From Elsinoe ampelina (Eukaryota), in NCBI GenBank assembly GCA_010093995.1, contig ML992502.1:2488728-2552727 (forward strand): a stretch of 64,000 nucleotides of DNA. Reading direction: 5' to 3'. The position numbers and the translations under genes were made by a program. Positions 32,903 to 54,142 of this stretch are shown in pieces; position 1 is the stretch's first letter; each line of letters begins with the position of its first letter. The notes under the pieces were generated by a model. It searched no databases. It saw only the letters and a program-made list of their open reading frames with translations, and was not told the DNA's origin.

Positions 32903-34697
32903 ATGGCCGGCATTTTCGAGTCAGCGCGCAACAATGGCACCCTCTGTGTGTTGCTCATCGTACATTACCTTTGTCGCATGCTAACACATCCTAGTCCTCG
33001 GCGGCCAGAAGATCAGCGGCACAGACGTGAGAGAGGCCAACGTCTTAGCGACGACAAATATCGCGAATGTGGTGCGATCATCCTTTGGTCCTTCGGGACT
33101 GGATAAGATGATGGTGGACGACATTGGTGATGTGACGGTGACCAACGATGGAGCGACAATCCTTTCACTTCTGGACATTGAACACCCAGCCGGAAAGATT
33201 CTGGTAGATCTGGCACAGCAACAAGACAAAGAGGTCGGAGATGGAACCACCAGTGTGGTGTTGATTGCTGCGGAGCTCTTACGAAGAGGAAACGAGCTGA
33301 TGAAGATGCGAATACACCCGACCACGATCATCACAGGCTACAGACTAGCACTACGAGAGGCCGTGAGGTACATGAACGACAACATCAGCACGAAGGTGGA
33401 GACTCTAGGCCGGGAAAGTCTAGTAAACATCGCCAAAACTTCAATGTCAAGCAAAATCATCGGTTCAGACTCGGATTTCTTTGCCAACATGGTTGTAGAT
33501 GCGATGCAGTCGGTCAAGGATGTCAACAGCAGAGGCGACGTAAAATACCCAGTCAAAGCTGTCAACGTGCTCAAGGCGCATGGCAAGAGTGCTACAGAGT
33601 CAGTGCTCGTCAAGGGGTACGCTCTAAACTGCACAGTGGCCAGTCAAGCGATGAAGACGCGGATAAAGGACGCAAAGATTGCTTGCCTGGATATGAACCT
33701 GCAGAAAGAGCGCATGAAGCTGGGAGTACACATTACCATCGACGACCCAGCGCAACTGGAGAAGATCCGAGAAAGAGAGGCGGGTATCGTGCAAGAAAGG
33801 GTCAAGATGATTCTCAATGCAGGAGCCAACGTAGTCCTTACGACCAAGGGTATCGACGATCTCTGCCTCAAGCTCTTCATCGAGGCTGGAGCTCTTGCAG
33901 TTCGTCGTTGCAAGAGAGAAGACTTGCGCCGGATTGCGAAAGCCACTGGAGCCACTCTCGTATCTGCCCTTTCGGATCTGAATGGCGACGAAAAGTTCGA
34001 GGCTTCAAGCCTGGGTAGCGCAGAGGAGGTCGTGCAAGAACGCATCTCGGACGACGAATGTATCCTTGTCAAGGGCACCAAAGCACACTCCTCGGCCTCC
34101 ATCATCCTGCGCGGAGCCAACGAGTACTCTCTCGATGAAATGGAGCGCTCGGTCCACGACTCCCTCTCTGCTGTGAAGCGTACTCTGGAATCTGGTCGCA
34201 TTGTCCCTGGAGGCGGCGCTGTCGAGACAGCCTTGCACATCTACCTTGAAGAGTGGGCTACCTCAGTAGGCTCCCGCGAGCAGCTTGCCATTGGAGCATT
34301 CGCCGCCTCTCTCCTTGTCATTCCTACCACCCTTGCCGTCAACGCCGCCAAAGACTCTGCCGAGCTGGTCGCTCAGCTGCGTTCTCGCCACGCCCTGTCA
34401 CAGCGTGTTCAGGCACCAAGCAACGACCCACATGCTCCGGCAATTGCCGCCACACAAGCGACCGAGGATGAGAAGGCGTTGGCCAAGAAGAAGAACTATA
34501 AGAACTATGGACTAGATCTGAGTAAGGGCAGAGTCGTGGACAGCCTTAAGATGGGTGTTCTGGAGCCGAGCATGAGCAAGGTGAAACAGCTCAAGAGTGC
34601 TGTGGAGGCTTGTGTGGCGATCATGCGTATCGACACGTTCATCAAATTAGATCCGGAGCAGAGAGGTGGTGGCGACGATGATGGGCATGGTCACTGA
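32903..34697 (+). CDS. TCP1: T-complex protein 1 subunit alpha (CCT1)
   Basis: [12 protein letters not shown] after intron 32947-32994; [26 protein letters not shown] and VPGGGAVE. Confidence 0.96.
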
Positions 34698-35723: not shown

Positions 35724-36380
35724 ATGTGCCGAAGACTCTGGCTCCTGTGCCTCTGCAGCCGTCAAGCGATTTACATTCACCGGTTTTGCAAGAACAAAGA
35801 GTGCTACAGGGGAACGCATAGACCAACATATTCGCCCCTGCAACCGGAAACATGGTTGTGTCAGGTCTGCGAGACGGAAGACTTTGACGAAGCTCGCGGT
35901 ATGTTCACCTCGATGCGACTTGTTGCACTTACGATTTGACTAATATGGACAGCTACTGGAGCAGACAGTCCGACCGAGGAGTCGCCAGCCATGCCAGCAA
36001 ACGACCCAATCTCCAAGCTACTGGAGGTGATGAAAAGACGGATCTATTGCCAGAAAGATGCGTTGGCCGTCCTCACCCACGAAGTCGACATCGATGCACT
36101 CGACGACAGAGGTCTTCGTGGGGTTCTCACCTGGTTCGATCTCATATACCATGAACGACGCCAGGAGTTCCGCGGATTCTCTGTGCCGCCGACCTGGGCG
36201 CAAGTGACCAAGCTGAGCAGCACTCAGCTTGAGGATCTGACTCTGGCGGGGCAGGCTGAGGGCACAAGCTTGCCTCTCAGCGGCGCAGGCCCACGCACGT
36301 CCACCAGCCTGAACGAAAAACCTTGCAGCAACTTGTCAGACGCCGAGAATTCAGATTCCGATGAAGAACACTACATCTGA
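35724..36380 (+). CDS. Met-Cys cysteine-cluster protein A (about 200 aa, 2 exons)
   Basis: MCRRLWLLCLC..C..C..CQVC. Intron 35899-35952 (GTATGT..CTAAT..CAG) joins the 35991 ORF in frame. TATAA at about 35650. Confidence 0.7.
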
Positions 36381-36505
36381 TCGTCGGATGTGAGTGGTAC
36401 TTGATTAGGCGACTAGATTTGATGGGGCGCCGGGTCTGGCGGGTTTCAAAGAGGGGTTGTAGCAGATCAGACCATCACCGATAGTATGAATTGACGAGCG
36501 CCACT

Positions 36506-36537
36506 TCTGGTAGTACCCCGAACAGAATGCTACCAGA
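36506..36537. repeat. TCTGGTAG-N16-CTACCAGA dyad
   Basis: Read directly; intergenic between genes A and B. Confidence 0.75.
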
Positions 36538-37154
36538 GTCGTCCTTCGACTTGTCGACCAGTCTTGCAGTAGCTTCATCGTCGGGTGTCAAGGTCTGCCC
36601 GATTGGGCCGCACCGCAGCTTCGTCGGTAGTCAGGCATTCCGTCGCTCTCCCCTTCGGCTCACCAACTTCTCACCAGCGTACAAATAGTAGAGATGCATG
36701 GAGCCGACCACAAAGGACCAGGACTTGCCACGAAGTCTGCCACGAAGACTAGCGCTGTTGCTGATGTGATGCAGCTCTCCGCTAGACGTCACAGATCAGA
36801 AAGTAGCAAACAATTGGGCAAAGCCATAAATAGTCTGACATTTTCCAATTTCAATTCCGCTTGTTCCACAGCATACTCATTCCACACTGCAGTATGTCTT
36901 GGGCTATCGAGGGGTGGAGCGTCCCAGAAGGCTTGGCCAGGTCAAGGGGACATAAAAGGCATGTATCTCTGTATACATCCGAGTGGACAAAGTCGTGAAC
37001 ACCAGTCCCCGCTCCGACACTGTCCTCACGACCTTGACACCCTCAAGCACCTGTCTGCTTCCCTTACTCAAAGGCCCAACCCTCGACATCTCCCCTGTCC
37101 CCACTGCCTATCCCCTCGACCCGCCCCCCCATCACCGACCTTTCCCCCTCCACC

Positions 37155-37889
37155 ATGTGCCACAAACACTTCCTCACCTGCGCCTGCGGCCGCGCCGTCC
37201 TGGAGATCGAAGACCGCTGCAAACCCAGCCTCGACGGACCACCCTGCTACAACGAGTCGATCGACGAGATCGTCCGCCACCCGGACTCCATGCCCTGCAC
37301 CCCCTGCCTCCTCCTCGGCTGCAACTGGCTCAACATCTCCCACAACGAAGGCAGGCTGCAGCTGCGCACCATCGCCACCGAGACGCCCATCGACCCCTCC
37401 ATGCCGAGGATCGTGCACGCAGGCGTCATGTCCGATGAGGAGCTGCCGTACTGCATTCCGTTGCCGGTGACGCCGGAGCCGGAGCCGGAGGCGGAGGCGG
37501 AGGCGGAGAGGGAGGCGGAGGCACGGGCAGGGGAAGTGAGGGATCAGGCTGGCGGTGGGACGGGAGAGGGGACGCTGGATCCGGCGGTGGGGTTTCGGGG
37601 GTTCAGTCCGGCGGTGGTCGCGGTGCGGCCTGTTTCGTTACCCAGTCCGACTACTTCGGTGGGGAGTGCGGAGGGGTACACTACTCGTGGCTCGACGCCG
37701 GAACTCGTGGATCGGAGACCCTCTTTCTTTCGTCCTGGGCGCCCGAATGTGCTCCGGTCGGTCAGTCCGGCTGGGTATCGTTGCGATCGGGACGTGGTTT
37801 CGCGGACGAGGGTGACGAATTGGCCGGAGTGGACGGGAGAGGAGGCGAGGGAGGCAGGGTTGGAGCTGCCGGGGCGTGAGGAGGGATGA
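37155..37889 (+). CDS. Met-Cys cysteine-cluster protein B (244 aa)
   Basis: CACCATG context; MCHKHFLTCAC..C..C..CTPC; acidic/Pro-rich tail. Confidence 0.75.
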   Translation: MCHKHFLTCACGRAVLEIEDRCKPSLDGPPCYNESIDEIVRHPDSMPCTPCLLLGCNWLNISHNEGRLQLRTIATETPIDPSMPRIVHAGVMSDEELPYCIPLPVTPEPEPEAEAEAEREAEARAGEVRDQAGGGTGEGTLDPAVGFRGFSPAVVAVRPVSLPSPTTSVGSAEGYTTRGSTPELVDRRPSFFRPGRPNVLRSVSPAGYRCDRDVVSRTRVTNWPEWTGEEAREAGLELPGREEG

Positions 37890-38222
37890 GTGAGGGTTTT
37901 TGGTTGGGTTCGGAGCTTGATGGGAGTTCTGGGGGTATCATTGCTTTCTTGGTTCTGCTTAGATATCTCGTATAGTGTTGTGGACTGGAATGATTCAAAT
38001 GAAAAGCTATCAAACCTATCTTGATTCAAACCGTATTGTGCTTCGAGACTTGTATTTTCCAGACGAATTCATCCTTGCCAATGCTGTGCTTACCGATGTT
38101 GTCGGCAACCTGATCACCAAGACTCATTCAAAGGTCCGAGGATCAAACGTTTGCAAGAACAGACAGGGAATCTGTCTACTGCTATTCAGGTAGTATTAGT
38201 TTGCCATCGTATGCGCGTTGTC

Positions 38223-38251
38223 TGGTAGTTCTTCCCGGATCAAAACTACCA
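38223..38251. repeat. TGGTAG-N17-CTACCA dyad (8-bp arms TGGTAGTT/AACTACCA)
   Basis: Read directly; intergenic between genes B and C. Confidence 0.75.
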
Positions 38252-39823
38252 CACCTGTTGGGAGTGCTGTAATGTATTGATTCAACCCTTGCTAGTTCCA
38301 CGCGTGGAGAGTCGGAACGCGTGATAGTAACCTCTCACCACAAGTCGTGTTGCTGCCTGGAGCTGATACCGTACCCGGGGAGCTGCATGCGATTGTCAGT
38401 TCACAGCCATCATGTGACATGATCGAGATACCGAGACAACATTCTGATGGGACTCAGCTAGACCCCGAACAAGACGTGAGCCTGCCTGTCAACGGTGCAC
38501 GGCAGGTCCACAGGTGGTAGTAGTGACAGTAGCGTATCGGATGGTAGCACGTCACCCGGCTATTTCAGGACCCTGTGTGTGTTACAAGATGGCCAATATG
38601 GTCTCCGAGCTCCATTGATCCGACACGGACGCATCACCAGCTGCAGATCGTGAGCAGGATGATTCTAGCTCTCTGAACTGACACGGCATGACTGCGATCC
38701 TAACTTCCACCTGCTCCATGGCTGGAGAAACCTTGGACGGGCGGTGTGTGTGATGGTACAAGAAATGCCATACGAGTCCTCCTGCGCACTCTGAATGCAG
38801 CTAGATAATAGTGAAGCACCTCGTTCGTGTCGGTCTGTGTCCTTGGAATCCTTTCCCACATGTCAGAATGGACCAAGCAGAGTGCATTTCCCTGTTGTGG
38901 ATGGTCGCTGAGTGCAAGAGCGTTCCTACTACTTGGAGAGTACCAGGAATATTGAAGGAGGAAGACCAGACGCGCCGAACATGTAGGATCGTCCTCGCAA
39001 AAAGCCTCATGATAGTGCAAAGTTGGCGAATGATTGGATGTCTGGTGGGTAATCGCCAGGATTTCATAGAGGGCGGCTGAGCGGGCATATGCATGAATCC
39101 TATCAGACTGCCGTGCCCGAGCACCGGTAGATGTTGTATGTACCATGGGGCCCCACACCATGTCCGTGCTTCGCTCTAAGGTCGCACGTATGCGCGGCTG
39201 GGGTTGACGCTGCGTCTAACGAGCAGATCCTTCCAGCACTCGCTCTGTGATGCGATCAGCCACGATCGGGACAAGTCGGAATCATTGAGGCGAGAGGATT
39301 ATGGTGTGTCGCACTCGTCGTTGTCGTTCTGCAGAAGTAATCTCGCTTGCTCGACGTGTATTGCAATCCGAAATGCGCACGACATGCTGATAGTATTTTC
39401 GACGAGTATGGTGTTGCAGGATCCTGGAGTTCAAGGCGTGATGACAATTTTGATGTTTGCTGCGAGTTGTATCTTGGTGCTCGGATTTGAGACTGTACCA
39501 CATCTCGTAGCAATCATGCTTGGATGATTGGTATAGATCCTTTGAAGCAGGAAGAGCAATTTGATGCACCTCAGGGTAGATTTTCCATGGTCGACGATTA
39601 TTGTGCCCCTCATCTTCATCGAGGATCGAACTGCCAGAATGAAAGCGACAAAGAAGGAGATAAAATGGTCGCCATGGACAGAAGAAACTGCACAACTTCC
39701 ATCTCAATCAGCTGCTGGACTCACCAAAGGTATCCTCTCCATACCTCCGTCGGAACGCCAGCAGTCATTGCCCTCCCTCCCTCCCTCTCTCGCCTCTCCC
39801 AAACAATACACAGCGCAACCACA

Positions 39824-40308
39824 ATGTGCGGTGGCCAACCTGTGTATTGTCAATGCGGCCGCCTACTCCCAAAGGCATTTGAAGCCTGCCCAGGCTTCGG
39901 TATGAACCCCCTGTGCCCAGAACCGAAGAATGCAAGCGACCTTGAGGATTCCATGACACATCCAGGTTGCGAGAGAAACTTCTGTCGTGGTCCAGGGGGT
40001 GATGCCTTGGAAGAGGAGGACTTCGATGACTCGGGAGACGAGTTGGTCATCGACAGGCCGGTAGGAAGAGTGAGTACGACGGTACTGCTCAGGTGAGTCT
40101 GCTGTGAATTATGGCCTTGATCATGTGCTGACCGTCTGGTAGATGGAAGGCTTGGGCCGACGACCGTCATCAACGGTCCTCTCGAATGCGGCCCTCGACT
40201 ACCAGCCGACAAGCAGACCAAGCAACATCAGACCAGTCCAGCAATCGACCTGGAAGAGGTGGACCTGATCAGCAAGATCGGTATGCAGGTCGAAAGCCGC
40301 CGAGGTGA
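39824..40308 (+). CDS. Met-Cys cysteine-cluster protein C (C-terminus depends on intron choice)
   Basis: CACAATG context; MCGGQPVYCQC..C..C..CERNFC. Candidate donors GTGAGT at 40070 or 40093, acceptor at 40142, giving stops at 40268 or 40308. Confidence 0.65.
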
Positions 40309-40749
40309 GCTAGAGGTGCCGGTGAGGACGGCGAGGCTCACGCTGGGCTGGTCTGGGCTTTGGTTTGACGAGGTGGATTTGGCTGGGTCTGAGCAGAGTC
40401 ATTCCAGATTGAGGAGTCGGATTGAGGACAGGAGAAGTGGCTGAGGATGTGGCGTCGGAGTTTTCTGTACACAGCGCTGTGAGATCGCAATCATGAATTT
40501 CCCTTTGAGACTCCTTGATGACTCAAATGCCCGTGCAGACCGTGAAAGTGGCGATGAGTGACCTGCTGGTACCTCTCCATCTCCGCAGTGCTATCAGGCT
40601 AACCCAAGCATGTGACGTACGTCTGCAGAACGTGACGTGGAGCGGGAGAAGAGCTCTGCAGTGACGGGCAGGTGAGGGCTATCCCCAGAGTGCGCCCACG
40701 TCTGCAAGACCAGGGGTTGAATGAGTAGGTCGTGGCACTGCATCAGCTG

Positions 40750-40779
40750 TGGTAGTTTTGACCCTGGGTAGAACTACCA
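40750..40779. repeat. TGGTAG-N18-CTACCA dyad (8-bp arms TGGTAGTT/AACTACCA)
   Basis: Read directly; intergenic between gene C and the GH127/146 gene. Confidence 0.75.
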
Positions 40780-41602
40780 GAAAGAGCATGCAGCATCTAA
40801 AACTCCTCGAAGGCGTAGAACGATACCTAATGCATAAGTTTTAGCCTCCGAGTGATATCTATAGCCTCAGTACGACAAGCTATCATATTCGAGGTCGTCG
40901 TCAAGTAAAAATCCGAGATTTTGGCAGTTCTGCGCTGCCATGCCCGCTCACTCTTGCACGCCACTGTAGGTGAAGCCTGTGGGAGACCAATTAGGTCAGC
41001 TCCGATTGAGGCTAGTCTATCACAAATGATCATGATCCGAAAGCCCAAAAAATGTACTGATGTAGTTGTGTACCTTGCAGAAACAAAATGCAGGATCGTC
41101 ATCCGGGGTCCTCCATGTTCCGGTGGGGATGTAGATTGATCGACAGCAAGCGAGTACGGAATCGCGGACCAGGGGAAGAGGACGGGTCGATGCTTTCACG
41201 AGAGTCACTGCCGCGATCTTCATGTTGATGATTATGGATAGTAGATATGCAACACGCCATGTAGTGCATCGAAAACCGACACCTGCTTGACAAAATACTA
41301 CCAGAAACAGGGCCTATGACCTGTATATCCGGCTGAGCCAGCAATAGCTGATAGTACCTTCTTCTATACTACCAGGTCTGGGAGCCATACTATCTGTATA
41401 GCTGAGGATATGCTACAAGTCCTGCTAGTTTCAGAGATGCGTACCCCTCAATCTGTCCTGAGCATGATAGCTGGTCATTTGCCATAATAGCATGTCCCAG
41501 TCATTCTGCCTCATCCGACTATCTGATTGACCACTCACTGACTGACGCAATCCTACCCGACCACTATCTATATTTCTTCTCGATTTACCATGCGATCTTC
41601 CT

Positions 41603-43474
41603 TCATGTCGGCAGACTCCCACTAGTTCTCCAATACACATTGTAGTTGACCTCTGAAGCATCGTAAAAGGGACTAAGTTTGACCTGCTGCCCGGCCGACG
41701 TGGCGGTAAAGTCAAGAGTACCATTGGATCTCTTGATGGAACCAAGCTCAATATCCGGCACAACGGTGAGTCGGGTGTTTCCGTAGTCGCCGGACAGGAT
41801 CACGGGACCGTAAGCCACGGCCGCCATGCCTTGGTCATCATTGGCGGCGATCGTACGCAGTGCAAGAGGGATGCGGATCTGAACGGTGTCTCCAGTCGCC
41901 CAATCACGCTCGATACGAGCATACCTGCCAGATATGATGGTAAGACCTTCGACAGGTTGGCCGTTGACGGTGATTTCAGCGCCAGTCGTCCAGGCTGGGA
42001 TGCGGACACTGATGGCAAAGGTGCCGGAGCCATCCACACGCAGACTTGATGTGTCTGCAGCTGGGTAGTTGGTGGTCTGCGTGATGGTCACATCTTTCTG
42101 AGTCCAACGAAGTGTCGACGGAGCAAAGAGATTGACGAAGAGTGTCGAATCATCGCGGTAGTAGATAGAGTCGAACAGCTTGGTGTTTGTCTCCACACCA
42201 GTGCCTTGACAGCACCAGAAGGAATTGTAATCTGTGCTCCATGTGCCTCCTCCCCAAGCTGGACCTACTCCACGACGTCCACCAGGAATCAACGGTGTGA
42301 AGTAGGTAACATGGCCATGGTCGCTGTGCTTGTGCTGTTGACCGACCAAGTGGTTGATCAAGGCGTTTTCGTAGAAGTCAAAGTATGATGAGCTGGTAGG
42401 ATCAATACTGAACAATTCACGAGTGAGCTTCAGCATGTTGTATGTGTTACATGCTTCAGCAGTGTCGTTGGTGAGATATCCAGCGATGGCGTTGGGCGGG
42501 CGGAAGTGCTCTGCCTGGCTGTTGCCACCGATGGCGTAGGTGTGGGCCTCTACGGTGAAACGCCAGCCATTCCGAGCGATGTCGAGATATCTCTGCTCGC
42601 CAGTAGCCTTGTACTCGCGTGCAGCACCTATCCACTTCGGGACCTGAGTGTTTGCGTGAAGACCATTGAGTCGATCAGTATTGGCGGCGAGTGGGTCGAA
42701 TACCGCGGCGTGATCGAAGCGTTGAGCGGCAACCAAGTACTTCCGGTCTCCAGTCTGGTAGTATACATCTGCCAAGACCTCGTTCATGCCACCAAACTCT
42801 GTGGCCATCTGAGCTTGCATTTGAGCATAAGTCAGTCTCGAGGTCCGGAAATTGACCCAATCGGACAGCTTGACCAAAACATCTCGGGCTGTGGTGTCAC
42901 CAATGTTGCGCCAGACGTCGAGCAGACCTGCCATAGTTTTGTGAACGGCATAGTATGGCACGTTGCCGTTACCAAGGGTTCTGGCTTCCAGCTTGTCGAA
43001 TTCCGATTCCGGAAAGCCGGAGAGGTATCCGGCATTGTAGCCAGCAGCCGCGTTATTATCTTGTGCCTTTGCAAGCTCTTGCACAAAAGACACGGCTCGG
43101 TCGCGACACACAGTGTCTCGCAATTGGGCATAGCACTGAGCCCAAGCTGTCAGGAAGTGGCCCTGGGAGTGTGTGCGGAAAGGGAAGTCAGGTGCTTCCC
43201 AGCCTCCTAATGGTTGCGCGCCGTTTGTGGATAGCTTGTGGTTCATGCGGAAGTTGTATACCAGCCGATCGAGTGATATCCATTTGAGGTAGGTAAGGGT
43301 TCGATCCTGGTTGTCGAGCCATCTTCCAGTGCCTAGAGTAACTTGACTTAGGCCGAAAGGCCATGCGGAGACGCCACTCTCAGGTGCTGCTGGCGGGACT
43401 TGGGCATTCGCAGATTGCCAGGGTATTAGAAATGCGGCAAGGCAAATCTTTGCCAGCTGAGTATCGAGCAACAT
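41603..43474 (-). CDS. Secreted beta-L-arabinofuranosidase-like glycoside hydrolase (GH127/GH146, DUF1680), intronless
   Basis: Signal peptide MLLDTQLAKICLAAFLIPWQSANA; motifs GGWE, GHFLTAWAQ, EFGGMNE, HANTQVPK, EACNTYN and FWCCQGTG. Confidence 0.9.
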   Translation of the reverse strand: MLLDTQLAKICLAAFLIPWQSANAQVPPAAPESGVSAWPFGLSQVTLGTGRWLDNQDRTLTYLKWISLDRLVYNFRMNHKLSTNGAQPLGGWEAPDFPFRTHSQGHFLTAWAQCYAQLRDTVCRDRAVSFVQELAKAQDNNAAAGYNAGYLSGFPESEFDKLEARTLGNGNVPYYAVHKTMAGLLDVWRNIGDTTARDVLVKLSDWVNFRTSRLTYAQMQAQMATEFGGMNEVLADVYYQTGDRKYLVAAQRFDHAAVFDPLAANTDRLNGLHANTQVPKWIGAAREYKATGEQRYLDIARNGWRFTVEAHTYAIGGNSQAEHFRPPNAIAGYLTNDTAEACNTYNMLKLTRELFSIDPTSSSYFDFYENALINHLVGQQHKHSDHGHVTYFTPLIPGGRRGVGPAWGGGTWSTDYNSFWCCQGTGVETNTKLFDSIYYRDDSTLFVNLFAPSTLRWTQKDVTITQTTNYPAADTSSLRVDGSGTFAISVRIPAWTTGAEITVNGQPVEGLTIISGRYARIERDWATGDTVQIRIPLALRTIAANDDQGMAAVAYGPVILSGDYGNTRLTVVPDIELGSIKRSNGTLDFTATSAGQQVKLSPFYDASEVNYNVYWRTSGSLPT

Positions 43475-44044
43475 GTTTGATGGAAGGAAAGATGAAGTGG
43501 AGGTGTTGTAATCTACGGAACCATACCTACTGCGGAGCATTTTATGTGGACGACCAGCACCTGGGAGAAGACGTAGCATATTGCCACCCACCGGAGCACC
43601 AAGCAGACAAAGATAGACGGAGGGCACTTGTTGACACGCGGTCAATGCTAGCGCTGTCTGAAGAGGCAGGAAGAGGGAAGGTCAAGTCGAGAGTCACAAT
43701 TTTGCCTCTGAAAACTGCGGAGAAGCGGAATGCGGGGGCTCTCTTGGCACGGCCTTGCCGCGGAAATGTGACACGTGACCGGCCTGCGAATTCTGCCTGC
43801 CGCGCTGCGCACTCCTCGCTTTCACTCAGTTACCAACTCCCTCGTTTTCGTTCTCGTCTCTCCTCGAAGTAGGAGATATCAGGCGGCCAATACACACCCG
43901 AGATCACCGGGTGTCCTGATCTCTATCAAGTCCTGCTGCCGATTCGGACGCCGATGCCGATGGCGAAGACGAACAAGACAGTCACCGAGATTTTTAGGTC
44001 GTCAATCACACCTCGGAAAGGCAAGAATTGGAGGACTGCTTCAG

Positions 44045-44171
44045 CATCTGGTAGGGATGTTAGTGCAAACACTACCAGATGTAAGTGGCAACTCTCAAAG
44101 TCTGCTATTCGTACTTAAATGCTAGGTTCTAGTAGTGGTTCTGGTAGTAATTGCACGATAAATCCTACCAG
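44045..44171. repeat. Two tandem dyads: CATCTGGTAG-N17-CTACCAGATG (44045-44081) and CTGGTAG-N17-CTACCAG (44141-44171)
   Basis: Read directly; in the divergent region between the GH127/146 gene and gene D. Confidence 0.8.
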
Positions 44172-44997
44172 GACTGGCGTTCCTCAGAAACTGAGTACAT
44201 TTGGAGGTGTGACTGACGACTTAGAAATCTCGGTACGAGGACCTTTTGGACTACTCAACAGGTACCGCCGTGGATTCGCATTACATACACACTGCTTCCT
44301 CTGCTGGTCCGCGACTTCCAAGGCTCTGCAGGAACCCGCTGAGAGTGTCGTCCTCTGGCCTCGAGGCTCAACTGGCACTGAAATGTCTCAGTAATGGTGC
44401 AGATTGGGCCGAATCACAGCATATTCTGGTAGCACATGCGCAGCCGATCAATCCGCTCGGGTCATACGACTATCGAATGCTGCGTCTTGAGGCGGACTCG
44501 CTGGTACCACTCCAACCTCCGTGCGTTGTGATGGACGACAGACGCCTCACAGACACACATGTGCAAGAAGTGGAGACAGTACAATTATCAAACAGTCTCT
44601 GACCTGTCGCACAGTGTCTACAATGATTCCCGTTGGCAAGTCCGCACGGTACAAGGCGGGAAGGTATCTCGAGCAGGTTTGCACAGATTAATTGTGCTAC
44701 AGACTAACATCTTCACTTTTTTCCGTGTGCAGCTGATTGGATGTCAGCGGTCGCCAAACTTCTTGTGCAGTCTCAGGGGTAGATTGCAAAACTCGACTCT
44801 CGGGTATCTGCATACGATGACATGTCCTTGCGAGGTGTACAATGGTAGCTCTTTGAGTAGCCCAGGATGCCATAAAGAGCAGGGCTGCTTGTTCTCGTTC
44901 ATCTACATTTTCCTAACTTTCAGCATTCTTGAACCCCTTCCCACTTCTATTCACCCATCTTCCCAACTCAACCTCATATTCCTTATCCTGTATCACG

Positions 44998-46236
44998 ATG
45001 TGTATCTCAAGAACATACATTTGTCGTTGCAGAGACTACAGGGAGAAGTTCACACGGGAATGCCCTCTGCGAAGGGATGGCCGGTGCAGCCAGGAGATCA
45101 ACGCACCGATGATGCAGACTTCCTGGTGTCCCCACTGTGTGGCCATCAGAAATATGCAGGCGTCGGGCAAGATGCGTTCGCAGCGCCAGTTGGCAGCACC
45201 GTGGGAAGAATGGAGGGCGGATTGCTCAGAGCATCTCGCGCCGCTGAACTTTCCAACCTGGCCGAGTGCCATGGTCCCTGGAAGTTCACAGTACGATCGA
45301 GTCTTGCCTGACTCGAGGCAAGAGCCACTCGTCCTCTTTTCCTCCATTCCAGAAGGCGAGGTCATCCCGCCGCTGAAGAAGATGGAGGATTGCAGAAAGC
45401 GATCAAGGGACGACTCACCAAAGCAGACAGCCGCCGTACCACTGCCACCTCCGAAGCGGATCTGCCCCAGCTCAAGGGCGGTGGGTTCTGGTTCGAACGG
45501 CAGAGTCGTTCCTCTCGGCCATACAAGCAGGCCAATCCCAAACCTACGACGTTCGACTCAGCCGCCAGTAGTAGTAAGTGCATTCAGTCTCGACAACTTG
45601 GCAGCTTGCTAATTAGCACAGCCTTCGTCAAGTATCGCTGCGCCCCAACGTTTCCCAACAAAGGTAGCCTCTTCCACTGCCTCATCTGCGTCACCAAGAC
45701 CACCGAGGGCACAAAGCCACGCTTCCACCTCGTCCGGGACTTTTGATCTGTTCCGGATTGCTCCACGTCCGGCGCATTTGCCAGATCAGCCAATCCGACA
45801 GGTCTCTCCCTCATCTCCGAGGGCTCCTATGGCGGTCATGGTTGCGGCGTCCGAGGAGCCTGCTCCTGTCAAACCGGTGCGGATCTCCTGTGACAGCTTC
45901 CTCTCGCAGCAACCAAGCGAGGAGTCTCTCACCTCGGGCACGGTGGCACCACTCGACGTCTTCAATCCATTCAGGGTTGCATGGATGAAGGTGCCCTCGC
46001 TGGCTCGCAAGCTGGAGGGGGAGATACTGGAAGAGGACGGGAGCGTGTGCTCGGACGGAACGCTGCTGGAGTCTGATTTGGAGGAGACTGGCCTTCGGAT
46101 AACCCTCAGGGAGTTCGGAGACTACCTTGATGTCTTCAACGACCTGTGGGCGCCGAAGTCGGGTCAGCTGTGGCGGGCACAGTGGGCGGCGGCAGATCGG
46201 CTACTGGAAGACAGGGTCGCGATAGAGATAGAATAA
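44998..46236 (+). CDS. Met-Cys cysteine-cluster protein D (about 396 aa, 2 exons)
   Basis: MCISRTYICRC..C..C..CPHC. Intron 45574-45621 joins the 45778 ORF in frame. Basic motifs RKRSR and PPPKR are possible NLSs. Confidence 0.72.
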
Positions 46237-47358
46237 CAATTTCACTACTTTGCTTCATCTCAAGTTGACAGAAGTGAAAAATGGTCATGTGATTTGGCAC
46301 TCGAGTCATGTGATGTCAGCCGATGAATTTCGCTAAATCGCAATTTGCCACTTCCATCCAACCCAACACCTGCGATCTCGATGGACATACCCGGCACTGC
46401 AATGCAACTTGCGCCGCCACGTTCACCACTATACTCACGTTTACTGCAGGTTCAGACATGTCGCGGACCCGTACAATTCCTCGCAGAACTTAGTACCATG
46501 CTGCCAGATCGTGCAGTCATTCTTCCTAAAACAAGGTGGGGACGCTCGAACGGAGACGTATCCTTCGTTCGTGATTAGGTGAATCTATCACGAGGTAGGT
46601 CCGACGTCATGGCACATCCGTGTGTAGACTGCAGTCTGAGGGTGTTTGCTGGTCCCGCGAAATAACTTGATCTTCTTAGAACTGTCAAGCTGCCACGTCA
46701 AATGGGTCCGGCTTCTCGCCTGTTCAAGCCTCCTGTGAATCATCTCGAAGCTCTGTACGGTTCGACTCGGCACTTTGTGGTCTCGACCGGGTTCCTGCTG
46801 GCTGCAGCTCCGACACGGCAATGAGAGAGTGGTAGCACAATAGTGGGATGTGCGCACAACATGACTCAGGTGCTGGAAAGAAGGAGTCGACGCCTCCGAG
46901 TATATCCCACCGCGGCACCCTGGTAGGACCATCGATCAGTGATACTACCAGCCTCCTGGCAAAGGCACAAGATCACGGCGTCCTGAAGAACGGGCTTGTA
47001 GCTACACATGACAACGCACGAGCCGAGTTCGAGACCACGAGAGCCCAATTTTTGCCCGGCCATGATGGCCAGCTCCCCTTAGATGGAACACTGACACAAT
47101 TGCTGAAGAAGGTGTGCCCGGTGTGTGCCTCCTGCATGATGGGTTTCACAGATTCGCTGGCAAGAAGGATTGTTCGGGCTGGCCTCAGTCCACCCTATCG
47201 TTTCGCGAATGCTTCACGACGAGGGAAGGCTCTTCATCCATCATGAGGGTATATAATCCCAGGTCATGGATGTTGATTCATTTTCAGAGCATGTCTATTC
47301 TTCCATACATTCATACCATCGAAGACTATTCAGCACCACGCAGGAGTCACAAAGAAAC

Positions 47359-48500
47359 ATGTGCGTCCTCGCCCCGTTTCTGTGCTCCTGCTCAACCCTC
47401 TACGAGTACCTCCTCGAGTGCTACCGAGGATTCGACAATCAGCTGAGCGAACACCTTCAGTTTCGCCAGCTGGAAGAAATCGCCCCATGCGCCATCTGTC
47501 AAGCAGTACTGGCAGGTAAGATCCGGCTAACCTGGTATGACAGCAGAATAGCAGAAGAGCGACTCGAATGGCACTTCCGTTGCAGAGCGACAGCCCAGCA
47601 CGGACCCTTGTCACAGCAACGACCCGATCTCCCTGAGACTTCTGTGGAGATCCGGAAGACGACAAGAGTCTTGTTGAAGTACGATGGACGAAGCAATGCT
47701 CCAGCGCTACCTCCCCTCATCGATCCCATGTGGGTACCCAGAGTGGTCGACTCTTTCAACGACCACGTGTGGAGCAAGGTAGAAGCCGCTGCGCAGGAGC
47801 AGGAGCTCATGTCGTCTTCTTCTCTGGTAAGTGCTCATCCCCAACTGATCAAATACCAAGCTGACCATTCACAGCTGCCCGATGCTGAGCTCGCTTCAAT
47901 GCTATTCAGCGACACCAGGTTACTGGAAGCGCACGTGGCGATTCAAGAAAGTACTGCAATCACCACAGCGACATCATCACGAGTACGGTTCTCTCCTCCT
48001 CCTCCCGTTCCACCCTCTGACGGTCCCAGTCCGACGAAACCTACCACACATACTTCGAAAGCCCCTTCGAGTTGTCCGCCCCGACCCCTGGCCCCTCCAC
48101 AACCCTCCCAACCCCCGCCCCCAGCTCCGCCCCAAACACCTACCTCCCCTCAAGCACCGACACATCCATTCTCTCCCAACACTGGCGAACCGGCATCTCC
48201 CACTCACAGCCCAAGCTCGGCCGACCATCATCAGCCCACGCATCGGCGCGCAAACGCGTCCGCTCCAGCCTCAAGAAGCGCGCCAAGCCCATCCCGCCAT
48301 ATCGACCCGGCGTGGAGGCCGAATCGGCGATCTTGTCGAAACATTTCGCGCTGATGTGCCCGGATCGAGTGAAGGATGTGTACCCGCTTGAGGAGATGTG
48401 GGAGGAGATGAGTGGGGTTGTGCAGGGGCAAGGGTCAGGGAGCAGGAGGGCTGCGAGGCAGGAGGATTTGGTAGTCGATCGAATTGAGATTAGTGATTGA
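47359..48500 (+). CDS. Met-Cys cysteine-cluster protein E (about 348 aa, 3 exons)
   Basis: MCVLAPFLCSC..C..H..CAIC. Introns 47827-47874 and 47983-48029 join the 48072 ORF in frame. RKRVRSSLKKRAK is a possible NLS. TATATAA at about 47250. Confidence 0.7.
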
Positions 48501-49840
48501 TGAGTTTCTCGGTGTTGGCATGTAGTGGTCCGTGAATTTGCCGTGTCTGAGGGTGCGCTAAGGGTCGGTAGTTGGGCATGCATGTTCGCGCTGTGGCGTT
48601 TCGGATGTCTGCATGGTGTGGGACGCCTGATGGGTTTTGATATCAAATCAAGAAATGGTTCTTGTGTAGCTTCGCATGCATTCCTTCGTTCGGTTCCATG
48701 ATGTTTGCTGGGGTGAGGGACCAGTTATTTGAAGACACGCTCGTACCGATATGAACCTCGCATGGATTGCATTCGGACGGCTCGTTATGAAAGTAATATC
48801 AAGTCTACTAGCTCGACGATGGATCGTCGCCGCGTGCCTGAAGGCTATTCGAGTGCTTCAGGCATGGGGGTCGAGCTGGTAGGAGTGCGTCATGACAACC
48901 TACTAGGGCGAGCTCAAAATATTCTCACCAGGCTTGCAACGAATCCTCCAAATTGACCAAGACATCACCCTTCAAGCAGTGGTAATCCTTCGAAGCTACA
49001 GCTTTCACGCTTACCCTCACGAAGACAGCGACTATCGACCACCGCAATGAACAGACCGGCGTGCGAGATTATAGATCATGAGGGCACGATCAAATCTATC
49101 AAGTACGATCTGGCGAAGACGAAGGCGGAAAAGCGGGCAGCAAGGATCACTTACTGCGCGCTCCGAAACATGCAAGGATCGCGAAAGGCATTACAGGAAG
49201 CATTGCCACGATGGCTATCCCCAGCTACCACAGTTAATGGATTCTCGAGAGGCGACATGTGAGGTGGTTCCAAAAGCGTCTGGAAGTTTCACACACTTCC
49301 GTCTTACTAGTGCTCAAGAAGACATACCCCACCAGCCTGGATGAAAATTGACCCTGTCACATCAGCCAGTGCTCGAAGATCAAGAAGATGCGGTTTCCGT
49401 CGGCTGGTCAGCCTACAGATACGTGATGTGGTTTTTTCGCTCCTGCATAAGGCAATGAGTCCCATTCTGTACAACTAAGCCATTTGGACGAGACCTTCTG
49501 CCCTGCAGTAGCTCGCTTGATTGATCTACGGTGATGAGTTGTCGTTACAAGAAGCTATGGAACGTGCAGCAAGCTCTTCGGAATGCTGCATGGTGGCTAC
49601 GATACTGCATGATGCAGTGCCCGTGACAGGTGCCAAAGTGACCAAGCATGGCGAGGAACAATCCAACATGTCATCGACTCTGGTGACCACTACCAGACGA
49701 GCACACACTTGCGAAAGACATAAAGACCGCGAAGAAACCACCAGAAATCAATCAAACCACCAGCATCCTTACCTTTCCCTCCTCGGATCTCACATTTTTG
49801 GTCCCTCCCCTCCCAAAACCACAAGCACCCACCACCAAAA

Positions 49841-50311
49841 ATGTGCCAAAAGATCCACCAATTCTACGCCTGCGCGCACACCCAAACGCGCATCAACGCC
49901 TGCGACCGCGTACTCCGAAGACGACGATGCCGCGCCCCTCCCAGCTCCCCTCTCTACATGGCGCCCCAAGAACAAGGCTGCCCGTCATGCCGCAACGATC
50001 CCTCGAGCACTTGGTACGACTTCAATGGACCGAACACGTTTCGCCCTGCTGGGCTGGGGCAGACGCCGCTTCAGCTGGACAGCAGGTCGGAGCGCTCGAG
50101 GGGCAATGGGCTGGGGCTGGGGTTGCTTGGGAGGGTGACGCGGCAGGTGAGGGGGTTGTACGAGCGGGTGAGAGGGCAGGGGCAGAGGCTGTCGCCGAGA
50201 CAGTCGAGGCAGAAACTGGGTGGGACGAGGGAGAGGGCGACGGGAGCTGGGAGGGAGATTGTCAGGCCGACGTTGGTGAGGAGGTGGACTTTTCCGTTTC
50301 GGGGTGGGTGA
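49841..50311 (+). CDS. Met-Cys cysteine-cluster protein F (156 aa)
   Basis: AAAAATG context; MCQKIHQFYACAH..C..C..CPSC; Arg-rich tail. Confidence 0.75.
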   Translation: MCQKIHQFYACAHTQTRINACDRVLRRRRCRAPPSSPLYMAPQEQGCPSCRNDPSSTWYDFNGPNTFRPAGLGQTPLQLDSRSERSRGNGLGLGLLGRVTRQVRGLYERVRGQGQRLSPRQSRQKLGGTRERATGAGREIVRPTLVRRWTFPFRGG

Positions 50312-51111
50312 TGGGGTTTGCTGGCAGGATGAGAGTAGATAGTGCTGGCGAGGTACCTATGTACCTTGCGAAATGAATTGATGCGTGAAACCACACTTGA
50401 ATTGTTTGACCTTGGCAGGCGAGCTGGCGAGGAGTGAGATCAACCAGTGATTTGTGAGAGATGTCCTGGTAGGTAAGTTCAAGCGCTACGTGAGATGCGC
50501 GGCTATTGGTAGCCGATGTATTACAAGCTACAGCGCTTGCCGGAGGCGCTAGTTCATGCTGCCGATGTGTCCTGGACGCCTAACTCGAGAACGACTTGTG
50601 CGGGAAGACACCTGGTGATCAAGACCATGTAGTGTAACCTTCGTATTCAGTCACACTTGATTGCTGATTTCCTTGGACGAGGGTTGTAGTCTGCTTGTTC
50701 TGGCGCATGTGGTTCTTGGCTGAGCTCGCTTTTGGCTCAGGCTCCTGTGATCTCCATGAGTGGAGTCGATTGCGACGGATTGGTAGCACGTCTACAAGCC
50801 GTGACAGGTGCAGAAGATCCTGGTAGTTTCTCCGTGTGGGAAGGCGGATTATCGAAGGCTATGCTGGTACCCGGGCGCATGATCGGGGCATGTTGCAGAA
50901 GATGGCAAACCATCGTATCCGACCAGGTATAAGAAGCAGCATAATCATCCACGAACACCGTGCCATCATCAGCAGCAGCATTCTTTCCAACTCTGACCAG
51001 ATTATCCAAGCAAGTAACGCTTACCATTCTTCACATCTTGATACTGACACATGACAAGCGTCATACCTTCGAGTACCTCCCTTCCTCCAAAGTCATCGAC
51101 CCTCGTCCACC

Positions 51112-51705
51112 ATGTGCTACCAGATTGCTTCGGAGCGGATTTGCGGTCATGTCGAAGTCACACACCCGTCAATATGTCCTGGCCCTGCAACATTGTGCAA
51201 GTCAATCCTGGTCGAGTTCCGACGTCCGGCAAAGGAGGACAGACTGTGCTTCAAGTGTGATCCTCCACTGGCGACATGGAGAGCAAAGGAGGTCCACTGG
51301 TATGGGTACTTACGGGAGGATAGCTCTTCCATCTGGCGGCAGATCATCCAGGAGCTGCACGAGGATGACACAATAGCCAAGGTGGAAGAGATCTACGCAG
51401 CTCAAGAGAAGGAAGACAGACGAAGCCTAGGGAGAAGTCTGGAAAGGTTGGCAAGCCTGATTCGGGGACGGCCAGACAAGACAAGGCTGTCCCGGGATCG
51501 AGCTGTAGAGGTGGAGCACATTCTGATGTGGGACGAGGAACCGAGGAGGACGATGACCATCAGCCGGGCCAGGCAAAGGGTCGTGAAGAGGTTTCTTGAG
51601 GGGTCGAGGCTGTGCTCGAAAGAGATCATGGGTTCGAGCAGCGTGACGGAGTTTGACCGGGCAAATTTTCGGCCAGTAGACCTTGGGTTTCCTCAATGGA
51701 GATGA
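51112..51705 (+). CDS. Met-Cys cysteine-cluster protein G (197 aa)
   Basis: CACCATG context; MCYQIASERICGH..C..C..CFKC; helical, charged tail. Confidence 0.78.
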   Translation: MCYQIASERICGHVEVTHPSICPGPATLCKSILVEFRRPAKEDRLCFKCDPPLATWRAKEVHWYGYLREDSSSIWRQIIQELHEDDTIAKVEEIYAAQEKEDRRSLGRSLERLASLIRGRPDKTRLSRDRAVEVEHILMWDEEPRRTMTISRARQRVVKRFLEGSRLCSKEIMGSSSVTEFDRANFRPVDLGFPQWR

Positions 51706-53143
51706 TTTGCCACACGCTTGAAGCAATGCTGTGAGTCTGCCGCTGTCCTTCCCTCCTGATCGTTGGCGTTGATTGGTCCGATGGTAGTCAACATTGGCAA
51801 AGCTGGCGGCGAGAACAATGTTGTGGTAGTTCAATCAGGCTGAGTTGATCTCATGTGTTCATTCCCTCTCCATGCGCGTCGCCAGAGCTCCCCAACGGAA
51901 GTCTCTTCTCATTTGGCTGAATGGGTGTTCGGCATCAACGATCAGGAGTGAGGTGGATACCAGCTCGCAGCCACAATCTATGTGTGGCACAGCTGCGACA
52001 AAGCTCGGATGCGACCGAAAGATTGCTTGCATGATTGCGTCGAGGTTGTGATGACCGAAAAGCCGGGAAAAAGGGGTTATGGAGGAGGTGGGTCCAGGCA
52101 AAAGCAAAAGCGACATTCAAAACGAAGACGACGCCAAAAGAGCCCGCGCTCGATCTAAGACGTGCAGATGCGGCAGCCCCGACACTACTCAAGACCAGTG
52201 CTACTGCAGACGATTTGAAATCTGCAAACAAAGTTGGCTCCAAGTCACGCCCCATGCGCCCCCATCGCCGTGACGATGCCATGTTTATCTTGCAATCACA
52301 CCGGAAGCATCCCTGCAAGCTCGCTGCACACTTCCTACAATTTCATGGCTGGCTGATGGCCAATATCTGCTAGCCGAGGCATAGCATGGCATCTTTTGGC
52401 AAATGGTCGTGGTATAGACGTTGGTGTCTCGTGTTGTTCATCTAAAAGCAACCTCGGGCACTACTTGAAGATCGACAATGGTTCCCCCGAACCAGGTGAG
52501 CCGCTGACAGATGGGCAAGTGAAAGAGAGGCGATCATTCCGGGGAGATACCAACCAAGTTCGGTTGTCGGGCATGCCCACGAGACGGCGATATAAAGAAA
52601 AAGGAGATGAGCTGAGACGGACAAGGACTTGCAGGAGCAGACGCCACGCCCGCTATGCCACGCGATTGGCCGCTAGCTGTCAAACGAGGTTCGGCCCGGA
52701 CGAGCAGTGGAGATTTTTCAGCCGCCCAGGCTACCGCTTTACGAAGAGTAATGCCGCCCGTACCTGATCTGCCAGCCTTGAGACGGCCGACTCGCCGATT
52801 TAATCTCGACATATGCACGACCAACACCCAAAACTCGCCCAAAGCAAACTCGGGCCAACACGCTGACGGCCTGTTCATCCCTGTTGGGCTATCAAACCTG
52901 CCGTACGAGGTCATTTGCAACCGAAGAAAGCAGCCATGCTGACTTCACCCACCGCTGCCCTCTCCGCTCGGTCCAGGTGCTCTACCCATGAGATGGGTTG
53001 ATCTGATAGACTTCTCTCCTTTTGCTCTGCATTGTCCGACCTTCATTCTCTCTTCATGACCGTTTAGCACTCTTGACCGCTCTGGCTGGTCCTCTCTCTG
53101 TCCGCTCAACGTCTCTGTCGACCATCACCACACGGCCCCCGAC

Positions 53144-54142
53144 ATGTCATTCCTTACCAGAGCTGCAGTTGCATTTGCATTCTTTACACTCGTTTCAGCA
53201 CAGACGACTTGCTATTACCCAGACAAGACCATAGCCTCGACAGATATCCCATGTAGCAGTAATGGACAAGCCACGCACTGCTGTCCTTCAGATTCGTTCT
53301 GTATGAGCAATGGGCTCTGTGCGGGAGGAGGTGTCTTGTCAAGAGCTTCATGCACGGATCAGACATGGGGGGCAGATCAGTGCGCGAGAGTGTGCCGAGA
53401 CAGTATGGCATCCTAAACAGATCACTTGACACCTGCTGACTTTCATACAGCAAACCCGGCGAGCAGGGTATCACTTACACCTTGTGGAGGACAGAGCTTC
53501 GCCTGCGGACTGAATACAACTTCATGCCAGACAGGACAGGGCATCGTCACTTTCGAACGACCAACCGCGCTTGTCCTCAGACCGGCCCAAGTAGCAGCGT
53601 TACTCGCAGCACAAGGTATCAACACGACCACCCCTTCGCCCTCACCAACACAGACCGCATCCGAGGAGCCACTCTATGTGGACGGCCAACGCATGTACCC
53701 TAGCTCAACCGTCCTTGCTCTTGGACTCGGCATGGGCTTCCCACTCGCATTCCTCGTCATCGCAGTCATCGTCATGTACCGAAAATTAAGAGCAAGGGCA
53801 CCACGGGATATGTATGACCCGCCAGATCAACCTCCTGTACCCATGGTGGCCAGATCGGTCTCATCACGACCCTCCACTTCGTCAATTGGACGCTCACCAA
53901 CAATCCATACCATGCACTCTTCGCATACACTCCACGAACCGGCTACCATGCCAAGATCATTCCTCGACCGCTACGCGCAGAAGGCTAAAGAAGATCCCGA
54001 AGTACACGAAATCGATATGGGCAATCCGAGATACGAGCTGGGTCCCAATCACGTTGGACGAAGTCTCTCTCGAGCTGAGCTCAACGGTTCGCAGCCGGTG
54101 GACACGTGGAGGAAGGTCAGCAAAGAGCCGATAGGGTACTGA
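53144..54142 (+). CDS. Signal peptide + Cys-rich ectodomain + Ser/Thr linker + single TM + cytoplasmic tail (Mid2/WSC-like sensor architecture)
   Basis: MSFLTRAAVAFAFFTLVSA; TCYYPD..CC..C.SNGLC..RASCTDQTW; TM LALGLGMGFPLAFLVIAVIVMYRK; tail motifs HEID and RYEL. Intron near 53403-53450. Confidence 0.82.

Follow-up and report, generated by a model that had tools for sequence, protein, structure and literature searches.

We describe a tandem array of seven genes in Elsinoe ampelina, the grapevine anthracnose fungus, whose products all begin with Met-Cys and share an N-terminal module of regularly spaced Cys and His residues. The array lies in a window of 64,000 nt, the whole stretch of DNA that was analysed (GenBank assembly GCA_010093995.1, contig ML992502.1, positions 2,488,728-2,552,727, forward strand), and spans positions 35724-51705 of this window. 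The explanation that we favour, with moderate confidence, is that the genes are an old tandem family, confined to the genus Elsinoe, whose intracellular products would carry a module for probably two zinc ions at the N-terminus, followed by divergent tails that are disordered for the most part. A first-pass annotation had called seven + strand genes at this locus, and all seven open reading frames (ORFs) are present at the starts that it gave. Named A to G, they are as follows:

Gene A: 35724..36380, + strand, 200 aa; exon 1 (35724-35898) roughly corresponds to the module, intron 35899-35952 (54 nt, GT..AG), exon 2 (35953-36380) encodes an acidic tail
Gene B: 37155..37889, + strand, 244 aa, intronless; 8-Cys module, acidic tail with a PE/AE repeat, conserved C-terminal stretch
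Gene C: 39824..40444, + strand; the ORF 39824-40096 encodes 90 aa, and the deposited model of 187 aa omits 40093-40149 and ends at 40444
Gene D: 44998..46236, + strand, 396 aa when spliced (model of this analysis); exon 1 44998-45573, intron 45574-45621, exon 2 45622-46236
Gene E: 47359..48354, + strand, open frame of 331 aa; the deposited model of 303 aa omits 47516-47551 (36 nt) and 47827-47874 (48 nt), both in frame
Gene F: 49841..50311, + strand, 156 aa, intronless; CxH variant with an Arg/Gly-rich tail; the ORF equals a deposited protein (P0010)
Gene G: 51112..51705, + strand, 197 aa, intronless; CxH variant with residues 1-112 conserved; the ORF equals a deposited protein (P0001)

The shared N-terminal pattern

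The ligand positions were read from the translations. Genes A to D have the arrangement M1-C2-x6-C9-x-C11-x10-C22, gene E has x9 in place of x10, giving C21, and genes F and G have M1-C2-x8-C11-x-H13-x7/8-C21/22. The next ligand is C27 in A, C31 in B, C31 in C, C30 in D, H32 in E, C30 in F and C29 in G. It is followed at residues 44-51 by a CxxC, which in C is instead a CxxxxC at 49/54. The pattern given in the first-pass annotation (a Met-Cys start, C11, C21-22, a later C that is H in E, and CxxC, or CxxxxC in C) was thus found again in the translations. Over residues 1-58, the other six products are 15-33% identical to A, and the invariant columns of a MAFFT alignment are M1, C2, C11 and the second Cys of the CxxC.

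This pattern is peculiar to the array within the window. There are 68 ATGTGY sites, 21 of which open an ORF of at least 50 aa, and 7 of these 21 fit the expression ^MC.{6,8}C.{9,11}C, all of them on the + strand within 35724-51112. Each of the seven N-termini has 6-8 Cys, a content of at least 6 Cys being seen in only 5 of the 533 other ATG-started ORF N-termini of the window (58 aa each). When a profile of the seven members was run against 1580 six-frame segments of the window, the members scored 42.4-77.1 bits and the next best segment 10.6 bits; since nothing else exceeded this value, the window appears to hold no further or decayed copies. Alignment by Cys spacing was compared with 300 composition-preserving shuffles in which MC was held fixed, and none of the 300 reached the observed score in any of the six tests. 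Between D and E, a 132-aa ORF (46848-47246) also starts with Met-Cys; with a single Cys among residues 1-60 it departs from the pattern, and its start is probably coincidental.

The tails consist of 51-63% disorder-promoting residues, and their isoelectric points (pI) range from 4.6 in A to 12.0 in F. They are acidic in A, B and C and basic, or similar to a nuclear localisation signal, in D, E, F and G; that of D carries a basic RKRSR cluster, and that of E is Pro-rich and basic. A kinship between the tails of A and D had been suspected by eye and was rejected, as BLASTP returned an E value of 6.1. As far as tested, the tails are therefore unrelated, as had been proposed.

Orthologues and database relatives

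Orthologues of B, C, E and F were found in Elsinoe batatas and of C and G in Elsinoe fawcettii. The B orthologue in E. batatas (P0009) aligned over residues 1-233, the F orthologue (P0004) is 93% identical and the E orthologue is P0008. Identities of module and tail were compared in five valid pairs, and were 53/40% for B, 90/28% and 93/65% for C, 98/83% for E and 95/92% for F. Judged by these identities, the orthologues are conserved in the module rather than in the tail. All pattern Cys are kept in six of six orthologue pairs, and only the extra C55 of B is lost. The Met-Cys start is present in all seven paralogues and in all six orthologues.

The G pair was left out of the comparison of module and tail, as the E. 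fawcettii model is fused with the next gene. Over residues 1-111, G shares 71% identity with its E. fawcettii counterpart, D9617_23g004800 (P0002, 341 aa). This looks like a fused model, in which residues 1-111 correspond to G and residues 112-341 to positions 53450-54139 of the window, with 88.7% identity. In E. ampelina the latter is a separate ORF, 1.7 kb downstream of the G stop. The E. fawcettii orthologues of C and G lie on one contig, with the locus tags 23g004770 and 23g004800. These tags and the conserved gene downstream of G show that synteny with E. fawcettii extends over at least part of the neighbourhood. Synteny, and the presence of paralogues elsewhere in the genome, were judged from deposited proteins alone.

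The family was not recognised in the searches against known families. In an hmmscan of the seven proteins against 24,736 Pfam-A models at E <= 1, six had no family at all, and gene G matched only FH2, with an E value of 0.11 and 12.1 bits compared to a cut-off of 34.8. The profile had no match at E <= 10 among 177,635 distinct PDB sequences. Against 1.84 billion representative proteins it gave nine matches at E <= 1e-3, eight of which were Elsinoe proteins (members and orthologues). We discounted the ninth (P0003, 2668 aa, matched in 13 stretches), a repeat protein of bacterial appearance, rich in Thr, Ser and Asn, whose score is the sum of weak matches to its repeats. In a word-indexed search of longer proteins, all nine of nine matches were from Elsinoe. 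A metagenome scan with a single protein (P0005) gave 117 stretches with the pattern, of which none was confirmed. No description of the family was seen in literature listings and abstracts, which is a weak negative for a family with no searchable name. The earlier statement that the genes belong to no characterised family therefore held in Pfam, in the PDB sequences and in the profile search of 1.84 billion proteins. By these searches, the family is so far detectable only in the genus Elsinoe, and it is best classed among the small, cysteine-rich, putative metal modules, as a variant that is restricted to the genus and undescribed.

By language-model features, the nearest clusters in the ESM Atlas were unnamed Ascomycota hypothetical proteins with no Pfam family, at scores of 0.84-0.90. 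One neighbour cluster bore the automatic name of a TAZ-type domain; this candidate was rejected, as Pfam gave no match to TAZ (PF02135).

A putative metal site and competing explanations

Seven to eight Cys/His within 55 residues, with a CxC and a CxxC and nothing else conserved, are the signature of a structural metal site. We prefer structural metal ligation to disulfides because there are seven conserved Cys/His positions within about 50 residues that include the CxC and CxxC, because Cys is exchanged for His in E, F and G, because the number of Cys is odd and because nothing else is conserved. Two zinc ions with one variable eighth ligand would most simply fit this arrangement.

In the explanation that we favour, an ancestral gene for an intracellular protein would have expanded in tandem long ago. 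The first ~55 residues of the products would be a small Cys-rich module, folding most likely around two zinc ions by means of seven conserved Cys/His ligand positions, from Cys2 on, plus one variable position. The CxC or CxH would form a knuckle, probably within a beta-hairpin, and the CxxC would start a short helix. The module would be the shared and selected part of the proteins, and each paralogue would owe its particular partners or location to its tail, the tails being charged, for the most part disordered, and specific to the lineage. Of the earlier proposal of a metal-binding module with variable tails, the shared scaffold and the conservation of the module over the tail stand, whereas the metal, the location and a role as adaptor, regulator or conflict protein do not go beyond conjecture. 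We infer zinc binding, the fold, an intracellular or nuclear location and an interaction or regulatory role from the sequences.

Several results weigh against this explanation. The AlphaFold2 models were of low confidence, with a mean predicted local distance difference test (pLDDT) score of 45.5 for residues 1-112 of G (11 rows) and of 56.6 for residues 1-70 of B (7 rows). In one respect both of these models speak for the explanation: B has strands at residues 3-8 and 15-20 and G at 5-8 and 14-17, on either side of the CxC or CxH, and the CxxC is directly followed by a helix (residues 49-53 of B and 51-58 of G). This layout would be that of a treble-clef or zinc-ribbon-like knuckle arrangement, and was given little weight. 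When the B model was compared with 48,161 chains using VIA-align, only four had a Z of at least 2, the best being 2.2; these were small ribosomal proteins, at noise level. Alternatively, the Cys may be paired in disulfides, or may hold copper or iron-sulfur clusters. Gene D had no orthologue or deposited model among the proteins of 226-721 aa that were searched. Finally, the seven 500-bp upstream regions had no shared word above chance, the maximum for 7-, 8- and 9-mers being reached by 200, 72 and 126 of 200 random sets, respectively. DNA repeats between paralogues were also absent, with only a GAG/GCG repeat inside B and short chance pairs being found. The lack of a shared upstream word and of DNA repeats linking the copies suggests that the expansion is old and that the genes are not marked as a co-regulated 'system'. 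Of the first-pass annotation, we thus retain the old tandem expansion, which agrees with the same-strand group and with the common Cys/His scaffold at the extreme N-terminus, and drop the 'candidate system', for which no shared upstream word above chance and no functional links between the genes were found.

The evidence that all seven genes belong together is uneven. In a leave-one-out hidden Markov model (HMM) test, A and B ranked 1, C 2, D and E 3, F 27 and G 15 of 534. Genes D and E were weak, with 5.4 and 7.4 bits, values that 14 and 9 of 1000 shuffles reached, and F and G were unremarkable (2.3 and 3.3 bits; 104 and 78 of 1000 shuffles scored as high). An hhalign comparison of A-E with F/G was not significant (probability 0.4%, E 0.16). 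The scores of F and G and the hhalign comparison speak for A-E (CxC) and F-G (CxH) being two unrelated small families that lie side by side and are alike by convergence or chance, an arrangement that we nevertheless consider improbable. The Cys-spacing score against A-E was 14.0 for F (shuffles 4.7 +/- 2.5) and 15.2 for G (shuffles 4.6 +/- 2.3), which is ~3.7 and 4.7 standard deviations above the shuffle mean and above 300 of 300 shuffles in each case. In its second half, F is spaced exactly as B is (C-x8-C-x16-CxxC), and all seven genes start with Met1-Cys2 and are adjacent on the same strand, with no other member in the window. On the leave-one-out ranks, the shuffles and hhalign, A-E are treated as one family by sequence, and F/G as a putative CxH subfamily tied to it by ligand spacing, start, strand and adjacency. 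It is the cysteine spacing alone that argues for a common descent of F/G with A-E. A different question is whether the array is a local expansion of a wider, unnamed Ascomycota superfamily of 'MC...' Cys-rich proteins that has diverged beyond the reach of HMMER. This concerns the range of the family rather than its mechanism and is compatible with the favoured explanation. Atlas neighbours of the G module (0.90, 0.89 and 0.88, with 194, 57 and 52 members) and of the B module (0.85, 0.85 and 0.84) were all unnamed Ascomycota proteins, and many hypothetical proteins of Pezizomycotina have an MC start with a nearby C-G-H. Moreover, a relative with nothing but the ligands in common would stay below significance in a search of 1.84 billion proteins with a profile of 58 positions, most of them Cys. 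However, the profile search gave no relative outside Elsinoe at E <= 1e-3, and, by the calibration of the Atlas tool itself, scores below 0.9 are leads only and 4-10 of 100 shuffled proteins attain 0.9. We regard a wider superfamily as possible but would not expect it.

The remaining alternatives concern what the Cys are for. Small, Cys-rich, lineage-restricted, fast-evolving proteins encoded in tandem in a plant pathogen have the typical traits of an effector family, and the products could be exported, by a non-classical route or with a cryptic signal peptide, and act outside the fungal cell as disulfide-bonded candidate effectors. Gene A, which starts with RR followed by a short hydrophobic run, has a borderline signal by eye. 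The other six of the seven N-termini are polar by eye, and the most hydrophobic 19-residue window contains 9-13 hydrophobic residues across the seven (by count, with no dedicated signal predictor). Cleavage of a signal would also remove the conserved Cys2. Unlike secreted Cys-rich effectors of plant-pathogenic fungi, which are likewise short, lineage-restricted, fast-diverging and tandem, the array proteins have no evident signal peptide, their first conserved Cys is residue 2, and they have long, disordered tails that are charged and contain basic clusters. The odd number of conserved Cys (7 in A-D) and the Cys-to-His swaps in E, F and G fit metal ligation. We therefore think it unlikely that these proteins are exported effectors. 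Still less likely, in our judgement, is that Met1-Cys2 matters in itself, with a free Cys acting as a redox, oxygen or metal switch (for example, as an N-degron on metal loss), or that the metal of the module is copper or an iron-sulfur cluster rather than zinc. Seven paralogues with otherwise ~15-33% identity, and six orthologues, all have Met1-Cys2, and methionine aminopeptidase is established to remove Met before Cys (see also the review PMC4692089). Among the substrates of the Cys/Arg N-degron pathway (plant ERF-VII, animal RGS4/5), the array resembles them in its invariant Met-Cys start, and gene C, which starts with MCGG, is similar to the plant ERF-VII oxygen-sensor substrates. In contrast to these substrates, Cys2 of the array is the first of seven regularly spaced ligands, and a start codon beside the first ligand is also expected from plain descent. 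We know of no Cys-branch N-degron oxidase in fungi, and nothing in the window bears on such a switch. A broader version would have an undescribed, seven-ligand metal domain, anchored at Met1-Cys2, in which the Cys left free after removal of Met ties stability or activity to metal or redox state, the array being a set of diversified sensors or adaptors that are specific to Elsinoe or Myriangiales and possibly infection-related; we give this scenario only a slim chance.

The favoured explanation, a zinc module with variable tails, can be set beside three known Cys-rich modules. The CSL, or DPH3 (Kti11), zinc finger (PF05207) likewise builds one site from a CxC knuckle (with Gly next in B and C) and a distant CxxC, which in F reads C-P-S-C. 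In contrast to CSL, there was no Pfam match at E <= 1, and the gap between CxC and CxxC is ~36 residues in the module compared to ~19 in CSL. The module also has two extra conserved Cys between the motifs and another at residue 2, and is fixed at the N-terminus. The copper-fist proteins Ace1, Mac1 and Cuf1 (PF00649) similarly have a fungal Cys/His zinc module that starts from Met1 and is followed by variable regulatory regions, but the array has no Pfam match to them and its ligand spacing differs, and nothing in it points to DNA binding. Zn2Cys6 proteins (PF00172) also have an N-terminal fungal module, in which ~6-7 Cys are able to hold two zinc ions. Here too there was no Pfam match, the motif CX2CX6CX5-12CX2CX6-8C is absent, and no fungal transcription-factor domain lies downstream.

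If the module is a true zinc domain, the metal-binding folds of fungi would gain a small, undescribed one that is fixed at the extreme N-terminus, and the array would be a clean case of a domain kept while the tails were replaced. Seven neighbouring, genus-restricted genes in a crop pathogen are reasonable targets for knock-out and localisation. As it stands, the array is one among many function-less, lineage-restricted fungal families, and is of moderate value.

Gene models, transcription and the surroundings of the array

Sequencing run X1, for which no RNA label is on record, was taken as RNA-derived. The assignment was made because two of its contigs lack canonical introns, namely the 54-nt GT..AG intron of gene A, with a joint at 35897/35952, and a CT..AC intron of a minus-strand transcript. 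The spliced translation of gene A is identical to the deposited protein KAF2227087.1 (P0006). The splice model of the first-pass annotation for A is thus confirmed, with the intron spliced out in the RNA contig and the product equal to the deposited 200-aa protein. The intron of A (35899-35952) falls exactly at the border of module and tail, after codon 58 and in phase 1; RNA support for such a position exists in A only. It is possible that tails were exchanged as exons of their own.

X1 contigs also lie on C, on G and on exon 2 of D. Gene G is fully contained in the X1 contig 50945-52072, which extends beyond its stop, and the D contig covers 45664-46214. No contig lies over exon 1 of D (44928-45511) or over E (47264-49015), which says nothing about silence. 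Some X1 depth was seen in the bins of B and of F. The GC content at third codon positions (GC3) is 0.57-0.80 in all seven genes, compared to 0.57-0.74 in six known genes and 0.48-0.55 in seven intergenic pieces of DNA.

Deposited proteins exist for A, C, E, F and G, and none exists for B and D as read here. The exact product of the B ORF is absent from the protein collection. X3 contigs cover 37167-37571 of B, whose GC3 is 0.80. The GAG/GCG repeat in B (37474-37521), which encodes the Pro-Glu/Ala-Glu run, draws pieces of high-coverage, unrelated contigs from runs X2-X4. The depth spike in this bin is therefore a low-complexity artefact.

In gene C, the X1 contig 39791-40257, the only RNA contig there, retains the annotated intron 40093-40149 unspliced. 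The E. fawcettii orthologue (P0007) aligns to residues 1-90 only, before the annotated intron, and the true product of C may be the 90-aa ORF. Gene D reads as a 204-aa ORF, one TAA and then an open frame in the same phase. The TAA lies in frame within the 48-nt intron 45574-45621, which has GTAAGT, a CTAAT branch site and CAG, and exon 2 is in frame with exon 1; GC3 is 0.62/0.64. No product of gene D seems to have been deposited. In gene E, the 36-nt 'intron' 47516-47551 has good GTAAGA and CTAAC signals. When translated, it gives a T-W-Y-D stretch, the same as that found after the CxxC of F, and this likeness suggests that 47516-47551 may be coding.

A minus-strand spliced transcript lies between B and C (38179-39749), with its CT..AC intron at 38383-38431 (+ strand coordinates). 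It has no convincing long ORF, and its 171-aa frame had no Pfam match. One gene within the array is not a member:

GH127 beta-L-arabinofuranosidase-like gene: 41603..43579, - strand; Pfam PF07944 (7.8e-103) and PF20736 (5.6e-23)

Across the window, the DNA is that of a gene-dense, ordinary fungal chromosome with ~53% GC. On both sides the array is flanked by housekeeping genes identified by Pfam, namely a CCT chaperonin subunit (32985-34694), prolyl-tRNA synthetase, a UBA2-like E1, ALG3 and eIF1A.

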